Both the position numbers and the translations under genes were made by a program. Shown here piece after piece: positions 4,288 to 10,304 of a stretch of 15,047 nucleotides of DNA. Under the pieces are notes generated by a model. It was not told the origin of the DNA and ran no database searches. It saw nothing but the letters and a program-made list of their open reading frames with translations. Within the stretch, counting starts at the first letter, position 1. Every line of letters begins with the position of its first letter. Source of the DNA: a virus (taxonomy: Duplodnaviria; Heunggongvirae; Uroviricota; Caudoviricetes); the IMG/VR virus record IMGVR_UViG_2529292716_000006; one strand, written 5' to 3'.

Positions 4288-4292
4288 CAAGG

Positions 4293-4335
4293 TTGATTTT
4301 TCCGGAATCTGTGGTAAATTCGTCATAACGATGGG
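4293..4335 (+). promoter_or_regulatory. Late promoter PR' with sigma70-dependent pause element (Q engagement region)
   Basis: -35 TTGATT (4293-4298), 16-bp spacer, -10 TAAATT (4315-4320, same hexamer as lambda PR'). AACGATGGG at 4327-4335 sits at the same spacing after the -10 as the lambda AACGAT pause-inducing element. Confidence 0.7.
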
Positions 4336-4369
4336 CGTTTTATGCCTGACGTTAGAAGAGTTTCTACAA

Positions 4370-4392
4370 CCCGCCGCCGAGCGGGTTTTTTA
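4370..4392 (+). terminator. tR'-like intrinsic terminator of the short PR' leader
   Basis: Hairpin CCCGC-CGCCGA-GCGGG followed by TTTTTTA, roughly 45-65 nt downstream of the predicted start site. Confidence 0.6.
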
Positions 4393-4511
4393 TGACTGAA
4401 ATCGCGTCAGTACAGTAAACGCGCTGGTGGCGGTGAATACCTGTCTTTCAGCTTGCTGGCTTTTTCGACAAGAGTTATTGGTGTGTCACGTTAACCGGAA
4501 AAGGAAAAGAC

Positions 4512-4709
4512 ATGCTAAAACAGCAGGATATGACAGAAACCGCCAGAGTGGTGTTTAATGAATTAAGCGTTACCGAACCGGCGACAGTCGGGGAGATAGC
4601 GCAGAATACTTACCTTTCACGCGAACGCTGCCAGTTAATACTGACCCAGCTGGTTATGGCGGGTCTGGCAGACTATCAGTTCGGTTGTTACAGACGCCTT
4701 CCGCAGTGA
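4512..4709 (+). CDS. Hypothetical 65-aa protein, possibly a small helix-turn-helix protein
   Basis: ORF with GGAAAAGGAAAAG upstream. The segment VGEIAQNTYLSRERCQLILTQL looks like a helix-turn-helix. Its stop codon lies inside a terminator hairpin. Confidence 0.45.
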   Translation: MLKQQDMTETARVVFNELSVTEPATVGEIAQNTYLSRERCQLILTQLVMAGLADYQFGCYRRLPQ

Positions 4710-4720
4710 AGGCTTTTTTA
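4696..4720 (+). terminator. Intrinsic terminator
   Basis: Hairpin GCCTTC-CGCAGT-GAAGGC followed by TTTTTTA. Confidence 0.6.
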
Positions 4721-4859
4721 TTTGTGGTAAATGGGCGGCTGGTGGGTGTTAGGGGCACCCACCAGCCATCTGCTCATGCGTTGGGTTCACAAGCAAACCT
4801 CAGGCCCACTGCTTTGCGCAAAAGCAGAATGAGCCTATCAGAGACAGGCTTAATGATCC

Positions 4860-7514: not shown

Positions 7515-7549
7515 CGCTTCAATGGGAAATTGTTGTCGCCATTGTTCGA

Positions 7550-7852
7550 TTAACGCGTATTTTTCAGCGACTCCTGTGCAAAATACGCTGTTGCTTTTTT
7601 TAATATATCTCGCTCAAGGCGAGCTTCATTTAACGCCTTACGCAGTTGCAGAATTTCAGATTCCAGTTCAGCCACCGTGCGGGAACCAGGAGTACCGAGC
7701 CCTTTTCTGGCGGCGGTAACCCATTGTCCTAAAGTGCCTTCAGGAAGAGATAATCGGGAAGCGCCTTCACTGATCGAAAGTTGATTTTCAAGAACCGTTC
7801 TGACAGCTTCGGCTTTGAACTCTTTAGAGTAACGTTGGGTTTTTCTGCTCAT
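7550..7852 (-). CDS. IS600 OrfA, helix-turn-helix / leucine-zipper transposase N-terminal part
   Basis: 100-aa ORF ending ...ERDILKKATAYFAQESLKNTR with the slippery AAAAAAAG near its 3' end. Confidence 0.9.
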   Translation of the reverse strand: MSRKTQRYSKEFKAEAVRTVLENQLSISEGASRLSLPEGTLGQWVTAARKGLGTPGSRTVAELESEILQLRKALNEARLERDILKKATAYFAQESLKNTR

Positions 7853-7924
7853 TATTAGCTCCTTCTGATGCCATTCTATTTCAGGAAGGAGTGTCCGTTA
7901 AACTCAGGCTACCTCATCCTTCCA

Positions 7925-7951
7925 GGCCCATCCGCTCCGGTGGGCCTTTTT
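7925..7951 (+). terminator. Terminator-like hairpin, 3' end of module copy C
   Basis: GGCCCA-TCCGCTCCGG-TGGGCC followed by TTTTT. Confidence 0.5.
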
Positions 7952-7987
7952 ACTGCAGAAAACAGGTTCCCCGTTAAATGCTATGTT

Positions 7988-8222
7988 GCTCACAATTCAG
8001 TAAGTTGACAGTTGCCTGTCAGACTGGGCATTTGTTAAAAAAATTTCGCATGGTGAATCCCCCTGAGCGGAGGGGCGACTGGTGACGGTATAATCTCTGA
8101 TTATCAAAACGAGAATGACGCGGGTTTAGTGGCACCGGGCTGAACTCACCGGGAGGCACCCGGCACCATGTGCATGATGATACAGATACGCGGCTTTAGC
8201 CCCTCTCCGGAGGGGTTTTCTT
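7988..8222 (+). repeat. Structured non-coding module, copy B (candidate sRNA or leader upstream of nanS-p)
   Basis: Same ordered blocks as copy A. Contains GGTATAAT at 8087-8094. Ends in hairpin GCCCCTCTCCGGAGGGG plus TTTTCTT, followed by an opposite-strand terminator-like hairpin at 8229-8257 (A7 then GCCCGCG...CGCGGGC). Confidence 0.45.
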
Positions 8223-8450
8223 GTGGGCAAAAAAAGCCCGCGCTGGGAGACGCGGGCGGCAAGGAATAAACAATAAAACGTGAAGTAATATTTCAGCTGG
8301 CGAATAATACCCCATAGTAATCACTCTGCGCAACTGCGCGGTCTTTTTCGAATTGCGGGCTGTCGTCTCTCTTCTGCCATTGTCCTGTAACTTCCGGACT
8401 TCAGCCCGCTCCTTATTTTACTCACAATATTATCCCGGCCGGGAGGATTC

Positions 8451-10304
8451 ATGGCATTTAAACACTATGACGTGGTCAGGGCGGCATCGCCGTCAGACCT
8501 TGCGAAACGACTGACACAAAAACTGAAGGAGGGCTGGCAGCCGTTTGGTAGTCCGGTGGCCATAACCCCTTATACCCTGATGCAGGCGATTGCAGCAGAA
8601 GGTGATGTGGTCGTCAGTGGTGCAACTGAGCCGGAGTGGTACTACGTCATCGTACTGGCCGGGCAATCCAATGCCATGGCTTACGGTGAAGGTCTTCCGC
8701 TTCCGGATTCATACGATGCGCCCCATCCGCGCATTAAGCAACTGGCCCGTCGTAACACAGTGACTCCCGGTGGTGAAGTATGCGTATTTAACGACATCAT
8801 TCCTGCTGACCATTGTCTGCATGATGTTCAGGATATGAGTACGATTAACCATCCCCGGGCTGACCTGAGCAAAGGGCAGTACGGCTGTGTCGGACAGGGC
8901 TTACATATTGCCAAAAAACTGCTTCCGTATATCCCTAATAATGCGGGGATCCTGCTGGTACCATGCTGTCGTGGTGGTTCGGCATTCACCCAGGGCACGG
9001 AGGGGACATTCAGCGAGTCCACGGGGGCCAGTCAGGATTCGGCTCGCTGGGGAGTGGGTAAGCCGTTATATCAGGATCTGCTTTTCCGCACGAAGGCAGC
9101 ATTGCAGAAAAACCCGAAAAACGTTTTGCTGGCGATATGCTGGATGCAGGGGGAATTCGATATGACGAATGCCAGTTACGCCCAGCAGCCAGCAGCATTT
9201 CTTGCAATGGTACAGCAGTTCCGTGCTGACCTTGCCGGGCTGGCGGCGCAGTGTCACGGTGGAAGTCCGGCATCAGTCCCCTGGATTTGTGGCGACACGA
9301 CATACGCGTGGAAACAAGAACACGGTACGCAATATGAAGTGGTATATGGTGCATATAAAGGTAAAGAATCCCAGCAGATTTATTTTGTTCCCTTTATGAC
9401 CGATGGTAGCGGAGTTAATACACCGACAAACAACCCGTCAGAAGATCCTGATATTGCCGGGTCTGGTTATTACGGTTCGGCATCCCGAACGAACAAAAAC
9501 TGGGTATCATCAAATCGCCCGACGCATTTCAGCTCATGGGCGCGTCGTGGCATTATTCCCGATCGTATGGCAACTGCTATTCTGAACGTAGCCGGTCGCA
9601 CCTTAGCCTTCATTAGTGGTAAGGCACCGGAAATCAAACCCTCGCCCGGCGGCGACACGCCATCGGGGCCGTCTGAAGATGCATCCATACGCACAATCTC
9701 CCTGTTGCCGACAGCCGGAGACGCTGCTGCGCAGGGCTGGAGCATTAAGAATGGCGGAGTTCAGTTGTCAGATGGTGTATTTAAGATCACCAAGCAGAGC
9801 AATAAAGCCTGGTCCCTGACGCGCCCGGTGGATGACGCAGTCTCCCTGCTGACACGGGGTGGCAGACTGAGCTGTAAGTTTCGACTGTCAGGCGCACTGA
9901 CCAACAACCAGTTCGGTCTGGGAATTTATCTGTATACCGATGTAGCGTTACCTGACGTCGTGGCGATGACCGGGACTGGTAACCCGTTCCTGATGTCGTT
10001 CTTCACCCAGACCACAGACGGCAAACTGAATCTGATGCATCACAAGAAAGCAGGAAACACAAAGTTGGGCGAGTTCGGGAATTACAGTAACGACTGGCTG
10101 ACGCTGGAGCTGGTGTTCACCGCCGGCAGTGCCACGGTTACTCCGAAACTGAATGGAGTGGCTGGCCCGGCATTCCAGGTCATAAAAGACAGTCTGACAC
10201 TGGGGCTGAATGCGCTGACGCTGACGGATATTACCAAAAATGCAGCGTATGGCGTTGAGATAGAAAGTCTGGTGCTGGAGATAAATGCACCGGCATCATC
10301 ATAA
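8451..10304 (+). CDS. nanS-p: Prophage sialate O-acetylesterase, NanS-p-like (N-terminal DUF1737-like region plus SASA/SGNH esterase domain)
   Basis: 617-aa ORF with GGAGG Shine-Dalgarno. Esterase block [16 protein letters not shown] (GQSN motif). Size and position between the tRNA cluster and the holin match the nanS-p genes of Stx-type prophages. Confidence 0.8.

Follow-up and report, generated by a model that had tools for sequence, protein, structure and literature searches.

A late-operon segment without stx from a probable Shigella sonnei prophage remnant, and the small-RNA units predicted at its toxin position

In Shiga toxin (Stx) 2a-converting phages such as Stx2_95 (LC567838), the genes for the toxin stand at a fixed place in the late region. 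The order is that of the antiterminator gene Q, the promoter PR', the terminator tR', a DNA methylase gene, the transfer RNA genes ileZ, argN and argO, the toxin operon stx2AB, a copy of the small RNA (sRNA) gene STnc100, the esterase gene nanS-p and the holin gene S, a layout that we take to be of the 933W/Sp5 type. Here we describe a stretch of DNA in which this arrangement recurs with the toxin genes missing: the viral record IMGVR_UViG_2529292716_000006 of IMG/VR (Caudoviricetes), one strand of 15,047 nucleotides (nt), hereafter ‘the window’. We concentrate on positions 4288–10304, from the end of Q to the end of nanS-p.

Taking its parts together, we think it quite probable that this region represents the late operon, in its promoter-proximal part, of a lambdoid prophage of lambda-Q type, which survives as a non-inducible remnant riddled with insertion sequences (IS) in the Shigella sonnei lineage, and that its slot for the toxin is an stx-less allele. 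The same assessment takes in two further propositions: that two extra STnc100-family units lie where Stx2a phages have pStx2-stx2AB, and that an IS600 transposed into the slot later, with nothing deleted. An architecture of this kind without the toxin is ordinary and already known; stx-less phages with the same layout occur in the phage collection, and an uninterrupted stx-less slot (at least 80% coverage) is present in 353 of 5,426 complete Escherichia coli genomes, with pieces of the slot in 2,870.

The toxin slot and its contents

Outside the stx cassette, Stx2a-converting phages are colinear with the window from tR' to the start of nanS-p, at ~90–93% identity. They share with it a 65-amino-acid (aa) open reading frame (ORF), the methylase, three tRNA genes and the terminator that follows them, one STnc100 copy, a minus-strand terminator module and the esterase gene. 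Among relatives that lack stx, the best is a lambdoid prophage of E. coli 042 (NC_017626, 1.410–1.422 Mb), which is colinear with positions 288–11096. It has the same type of Q, an identical 65-aa ORF and holin, and a slot with three STnc100 units, but it carries no IS600 in that slot, it keeps lysozyme, Rz-like and terminase genes, and between hok and DUF968 it has additional genes, absent from the window. A preliminary description of the window had likened the region to the toxin locus of Stx phages and had placed Q, PR', a methyltransferase, three tRNAs, IS600, nanS-p and a holin in that order. The whole-region alignments bear the likeness out, and the order is confirmed: every one of these elements is present in the window, which was searched for ORFs, tRNA genes, promoters and terminators.

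The flanking architecture of the Stx-phage toxin locus—tR', methylase, tRNAs, STnc100, nanS-p and holin—is present, then, and stxA and stxB are not. With Stx2A and Stx2B translated from a Stx2a phage as queries, tblastn at default settings returned best expect (E) values of 1.7 and 0.56 against the window. With the IS taken out of the slot, its ten longest frames from stop to stop showed no match to the ribosome-inactivating protein or Shiga-like toxin beta families of Pfam, and sensitive blastn with the 1.34 kb of stx-specific DNA reached 24.0 bits at best, against a shuffled mean of 24.5. The absence of stx, as previously asserted, is real, and these searches detected no hidden remnant of it in protein or in DNA. 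One candidate remnant was rejected. At a tblastn word size of 2, residues 47–103 of StxA pair with the minus strand at 8219–8055 (27.3 bits, E 0.008). This is the wrong strand, the match falls in an antisense frame of the last STnc100 unit, and it disappears at default settings. A hundred shuffled queries reach 26.6 bits at default settings, a figure that is not strictly comparable with the word-size-2 score.

What the slot does contain is a diverged module of ~220 nt, found by repeat search on either side of the IS600 (6255–6471 and 7989–8225). Both copies belong to STnc100-family units on the plus strand. Unit 1 (6255–6474) matches the Rfam model RF02076 over its full length at 6285–6474 with 123.6 bits, has repeat families D2–D4 in common with unit 3, and ends in a terminator at 6445–6471. 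Unit 3 (7989–8228) matches, again over the full length of the model, at 8019–8228 with 161 bits and is the copy kept in Stx2a phages, ~75 nt downstream of stx2B. These scores are ~2.6 and ~3.4 times the gathering score of the family, 47 bits. Between the two lies what remains of another unit, also on the plus strand, divided by the IS600 into a body (6513–6652, with a weak RF02076 match at 6513–6701) and a 3' part with its hairpin (7917–7951; terminator at 7924–7951, repeat family D3, −16.3 kcal/mol, z −3.3). Because the uninterrupted slot of E. coli 042 has three units in a row, scoring 136, 30 and 165 bits, the slot of the window amounts to three STnc100-family units in tandem, of which the middle one is degenerate. 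In 042 the middle unit matches the full length of the model (30.1 bits, E 1.7e-4), and its terminator is the one at 7924–7947 in the window. The preliminary description saw only ‘non-coding modules’ and one IS600 in place of stx; the missing toxin and the IS600 stand, the modules turn out to be STnc100-family sRNA units, and the IS600 is one of three copies in the window.

A four-way alignment sets out how the slot differs from that of a toxigenic phage. Stx2_95 shares it up to ~6250, at the terminator behind tRNA-Arg(TCT), and again from 7989, the 5' repeat of the last STnc100; between these points it has pStx2-stx2AB (~1.34 kb), where the window has 474 nt, comprising units 1 and 2, and the IS600. 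Its single STnc100 copy lies downstream of stx2B and scores 160 bits.

That STnc100 is a gene for an RNA, and not simply a stretch of the late operon, is suggested by published work. It is located downstream of stx2, and its RNA has been detected by quantitative reverse-transcription PCR (RT-qPCR) in Stx-producing E. coli (PMC12370729). It is related to PasD1 and PasD2 of enteropathogenic E. coli (EPEC), with which it has been proposed to share an origin, and PasD2 lies directly upstream of an esterase gene (bioRxiv 10.64898/2026.05.13.724894), as unit 3 does here. Northern blots show PasD1 and PasD2 as RNAs of defined size; both depend on Hfq, have targets in RIL-seq (RNA interaction by ligation and sequencing) and are abundant without induction (PMC8550237). 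PasD2 of EPEC E2348/69 shares the core GCAUGGUGAAUCC...GGAGGGGC with STnc100. The alternative, which we regard as very unlikely, is that the STnc100-like units act in cis on the late transcript, for instance in its processing, stability or termination, and that the array is no more than duplicated regulatory DNA. All the units are indeed in the sense orientation inside the late operon, each ends in a terminator, and a target or function of STnc100 is undemonstrated (PMC12370729). Set against this are the standing of STnc100 as a curated sRNA family, the margins by which two copies clear its gathering score, the RNA seen by RT-qPCR, and the discrete Hfq-dependent nature of the related PasD RNAs. 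We continue to treat the units as probable sRNA genes.

Other known sRNAs were looked for as well. PasD2 and PasA were rejected as constituents of the window: against E2348/69 PP2 only the esterase and holin align, with no blastn-level similarity to PasD2 or PasA themselves, and the spacer between esterase and holin in the window (~150 nt) is without PasA. AgvB, AsxR and Esr41 gave no Rfam match at E ≤ 1 in the window. The antisense frame of unit 3 (8055–8219, minus strand) has a sub-threshold YmjE-like Pfam match (16.3 bits, E 0.0097), and in E. coli 042 and E2348/69 the antisense frame of STnc100/PasD units carries small pseudo ‘hypothetical protein’ fragments annotated by PGAP.

A further sRNA candidate faces the array. 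Between unit 3 and nanS-p, on the minus strand, 8229–8282 would be the 3' end and terminator of a convergent RNA, possibly reaching ~8422. Its terminator (8257–8236, minus strand) is the strongest in the window, with a fold z-score of −3.15, and a promoter-like site at 8457–8429 (minus strand) would yield an RNA of ~190 nt. This segment matches the 52-nt 3' segment of an EPEC RNA, E2348C_1409.E2348C_1408.IGR, at 49 of 54 aligned positions (E 1.4e-10); that RNA is an Hfq RIL-seq candidate, with the 3' segment shown in Fig. S5 (PMC8550237). The predicted seed reads CUUGCG in EPEC and CUUGCCG in the window. Conservation of the candidate extends to E. coli 042 and Stx2_95; in Rfam it finds no more than a weak OmrA-B-like match (25 bits).

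The IS600 copies

The IS600 in the slot, a member of the IS3 family, occupies 6653–7916 on the minus strand. It is 100% identical over its 1264 bp to annotated IS600, has TG...CA ends, and encodes orfA (7852–7550) and orfB (7514–6696), both on the minus strand and with IS3-family transposase domains. It sits inside the middle STnc100-like unit, just upstream of the terminator. The preliminary description had supposed that this antisense copy may add polarity; the terminator-like sites inside it on the plus strand of the window are all weak. IS600, like its family, duplicates 3 bp of target on insertion, and TCC can be read on either side of this copy, at 6650–6652 and 7917–7919. In E. coli 042, the slot is uninterrupted and the two flanks abut. 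Because of the 3-bp duplication and the uninterrupted slot of 042, we read this IS600 as a simple insertion into a slot that already lacked stx, and not as a deletion scar.

It might instead be asked whether the IS600 is the scar of an IS600-mediated deletion of stx, which would mean that the prophage was once toxigenic. The question has a precedent: McDonough and Butterton are said to have described in 1999 such a deletion at the IS600-flanked stx locus of Shigella dysenteriae 1. The host lineage here is Shigella too, the remnant has three IS600 copies within it or close by, and the third has unlike flanks, as befits a rearrangement junction. The duplication at the slot copy is perfect, however, the flanks are contiguous in 042, an uninterrupted stx-less slot recurs in the 353 complete E. 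coli genomes mentioned above, and a remnant of stx is undetectable at the protein and DNA levels. The target duplication and the 042 slot effectively refute the deletion, to which we give next to no credence. Simple insertion is the reading that we keep, and the IS600 here is not evidence for past loss of the toxin.

The other two copies lie at the edges of the region. The window begins inside a partial IS600 (1–287) that is inverted relative to the other two and, throughout its 287 nt, complementary to them at 100%. If inverted copies recombined, 288–6652 could be turned round; no such inversion is seen in comparison with E. coli 042. The third IS600 (11379–12642) interrupts ISSso4 and has no target duplication. 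Because its flanks are unlike (aac and gcc), it marks a rearrangement junction.

Q, its promoter and late expression

The Q gene (3466–4287, plus strand) ends immediately before position 4288. Its product, of 273 aa, belongs to the lambda-Q family (PF03589, 179 bits), is identical to the E. coli 042 protein at 257 of 273 residues, and matches the structure of Q-lambda (PDB 7UBM, E 3.5e-41) over residues 1–113 and 182–273. The residues between (~114–181) form an insertion of ~68 aa relative to Q-lambda, with extra zinc knuckles of the DnaJ-like CxxC(xGxG) kind (PF00684 at 30 bits, just below the cut-off). Homology with Stx2a phages starts exactly at tR' (4368); their Q, upstream of that point, is of another type, and is 126 aa long in Stx2_95. 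In this module, the window resembles lambda itself. Downstream of the Q-lambda homologue comes a late promoter, PR' (4293–4335, plus strand), with −35 TTGATT at 4293–4298, −10 TAAATT at 4315–4320 and a putative +1 at ~4327. When the interval is aligned with that between Q and PR' of lambda, the −35, GGTAAATT and AACGATGGG all line up; AACGATGGG (4327–4335, plus strand) we take to be lambda's sigma70-dependent pause element, assigning roles to the elements of PR' as in the work of the Roberts laboratory on lambda. The intrinsic terminator tR' follows at 4368–4393 (plus strand; hairpin and U6, −21.4 kcal/mol, z −2.5), much closer than in lambda. With +1 placed by homology to lambda, the RNA from PR' to tR' would be ~66 nt long, against 194 nt for the 6S RNA of lambda. 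The small RNA StxS of the Sakai phages, which goes with a Q of the 144-aa type and a PR'–tR' interval of 258 nt (PMC7547250), was considered and found not applicable, the type of Q and the interval both being different.

Beyond tR' lies the conserved 65-aa ORF (4512–4709, plus strand), 65/65 identical in E. coli 042 and ‘hypothetical’ in Stx2_95; it is weakly helix-turn-helix (HTH)-like (TrmB HTH match, E 0.0026, below the cut-off), and an intrinsic terminator stands at its end (4696–4719, plus strand). An N6/N4 DNA methyltransferase gene follows (4860–5918, plus strand; PF01555, 144 bits), and Stx2a phages have an annotated DNA methylase at the equal position. The three tRNAs, all on the plus strand, were found by ARAGORN and by the Rfam tRNA model: a tRNA-Ile2-like gene with anticodon CAT (5959–6034; 72.5 bits), identical at 76 of 76 positions to a PGAP-annotated tRNA-Ile gene in 042, tRNA-Arg(TCG) (6042–6118; 58 bits) and tRNA-Arg(TCT) (6132–6208; 70.1 bits). 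They fit the ileZ–argN–argO pattern, as named from 933W. With a promoter-like site before them (5921–5949, plus strand) and a terminator behind (6223–6248, plus strand), they form a unit spanning 5921–6248.

Terminators are plentiful in the window: the scan counts 36 terminator-like sites, against 14.3 ± 4.0 in shuffles. The seven that the preliminary description had named on the path from PR' to the holin (4370, 4696, 6223, 6446, 7925, 8199 and 10390) were recovered on the plus strand at 4368, 4696, 6223, 6445, 7924, 8198 and 10387, with one additional weak terminator-like site at 8326. In the textbook model, polymerase modified by Q at PR' reads through tR' and later terminators. By homology, PR' here is a lambda-like promoter with a sigma70-dependent pause site, from which transcripts made in the absence of Q would end at tR'. 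In intact relatives, Q would load at PR', and polymerase would pass tR' and the terminators downstream into the methyltransferase, nanS-p and the lysis genes. Yet the terminator at 6223 closes the tRNA cluster, those at 6445 and 8198 close the two STnc100 genes with full scores, and the one at 7924 closes the degenerate unit between them. A count of terminators along the late operon overstates the requirement for Q, since several of those counted serve independent tRNA and sRNA genes. Such independence is probable for the tRNA cluster and for the STnc100 units, which have terminators of their own and could be expressed in the lysogen in the absence of Q. In the remnant, such function as survives probably comes from these autonomous genes and from basal transcription that reaches nanS-p.

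That nanS-p probably depends on Q antitermination is the weak part of the preliminary description. Such dependence would follow the textbook model and is consistent with the behavior of Stx2a phages, in which mitomycin C raises nanS-p by 1–2.4 logs, together with stx2 (PMC10462455). Q could also be irrelevant, if nanS-p and the other survivors were expressed from local promoters or by read-through of the STnc100 unit just upstream, and the terminators served to delimit independent small genes. There is something to be said for this: the promoter-like site directly before the tRNAs, the short interrupted U-tract (UUUUCU) that follows the hairpins of the STnc100 units in place of long U-runs, the esterase mRNA found among Hfq-bound targets in uninduced cultures of EPEC E2348/69, the abundance of the related PasD sRNAs without induction (PMC8550237), and the lack of an early region nearby in sister genomes. 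Q and PR'/tR' are intact and conserved, however, the promoter scan found no sigma70-like promoter on the plus strand at 8229–8450, and the mitomycin C response of nanS-p alongside stx2 speaks for Q as well. We consider irrelevance of Q somewhat unlikely, and prefer to suppose that the late operon, where intact, answers to Q.

State, distribution and meaning of the remnant

The esterase gene (8451–10304, plus strand) is intact. Its product, of 617 aa, is of the NanS-p type of sialate O-acetylesterases, with an N-terminal DUF1737 (PF08410), an SASA/SGNH esterase domain (PF03629) and DUF6645 (PF20350). A GQSN block is visible in the translation, activity is predicted from the domains, and the gene lies between the stx position and the holin, as in Stx2a phages. 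It differs from the 042 protein at three positions (614/617 identical), and exact copies of its sequence turn up in 2,869 index blocks of public assemblies.

After an intrinsic terminator in the esterase–holin interval (10387–10421, plus strand; 12-bp stem, U6) come, on the same strand, a P21-type holin gene S (10454–10669; PF04971, 112 bits), a DUF1327/YdfR-like gene (10674–10988; PF07041, 133 bits) and the first ~17 codons of an endolysin gene (11044–11096), cut by the left end of ISSso4, an element of the IS21 family. Homology with 042 stops at 11096, inside the lysozyme gene. The ISSso4 sequence (11097–11378, 100% identity) comprises the left end and the start of istA, and its 23-nt tandem repeats are the terminal repeats of the element. 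The prophage, with its lysis cassette destroyed, appears to be a dead, IS-bounded remnant.

How widely this form of the locus is shared can be judged from sister genomes. All eight ~4.8-Mb chromosomes examined that carry the exact esterase—among them CP022672, of S. sonnei strain 866—have both junctions between slot and IS600 and the left junction of the third IS600; the right junction of the third copy was not found in the eight sister loci. The slot/IS600 junction was not found in the GTDB representative genomes, a set that possibly has no genome of this lineage.

Several points count against the reading of the region given at the outset. The loss of the early region would follow from the sister genomes, where immunity and replication genes are absent within 10 kb upstream, while the window itself starts inside an IS600. 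The middle STnc100 unit falls below the Rfam gathering score (30.1 versus 47 bits). The promoters and 5' ends of the STnc100 units can be placed tentatively from the read coordinates of PasD2; a sigma70-type scan of the window detected no promoters for them. The generic sigma70 scan missed PR' as well, whose hexamers match at 8 of 12 positions. And that Q and PR' function as a cognate pair is assumed: in lambda the Q-binding element sits, as we understand it, between the −35 and −10, and there the sequence of PR' is unlike lambda's.

A few features lie outside the late region. Upstream, there is a hok/sok type I toxin–antitoxin locus, with an Rfam sok match of 112 bits at 1127–1302 and a hok ORF at 1240–1452; hokD is annotated at the same place in 042. 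A weak isrK-like Rfam match (1461–1542; 25.7 bits, E 0.042), ending at a terminator at 1521–1538, falls exactly at a mosaic breakpoint with respect to 042, which has ~1.8 kb of extra genes there. Downstream, judging from ORF translations, are frameshifted fragments of IS21-family istB/istA (12635–14209, minus strand), a fragment resembling the Mg-chelatase-like ComM/YifB (14446–14724, minus strand) and, from 14766, the start of an IS1 with an insA-like ORF.

What does all this amount to? Beyond bookkeeping, its significance is slight; toxin-free lambdoid prophages whose late region is laid out as in Stx phages are common. The additions are modest: the three-unit STnc100 array predicted in the slot, and the conserved candidate for a convergent sRNA beside it. 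The toxin slot, ‘empty’ at first sight, would in fact be occupied by an array of small-RNA genes. One may speculate further that the stx operon and the two-unit STnc100 cassette are alternative alleles of a single slot delimited by recombination—its left boundary the terminator of the tRNA cluster, its right boundary the conserved 5' repeat (CTCACAATTCAG..GTTGACAG) in the STnc100 gene that is retained—so that toxin is gained or lost by homologous exchange of cassettes, and that the sRNAs, tRNAs and esterase have become domesticated in S. sonnei. We think this unlikely as matters stand. If it were true, S. sonnei would be keeping a dead prophage for the sake of what it encodes: Hfq-type sRNAs (two copies of STnc100 and the convergent one on the minus strand), tRNAs and the esterase, all put to the service of the host.

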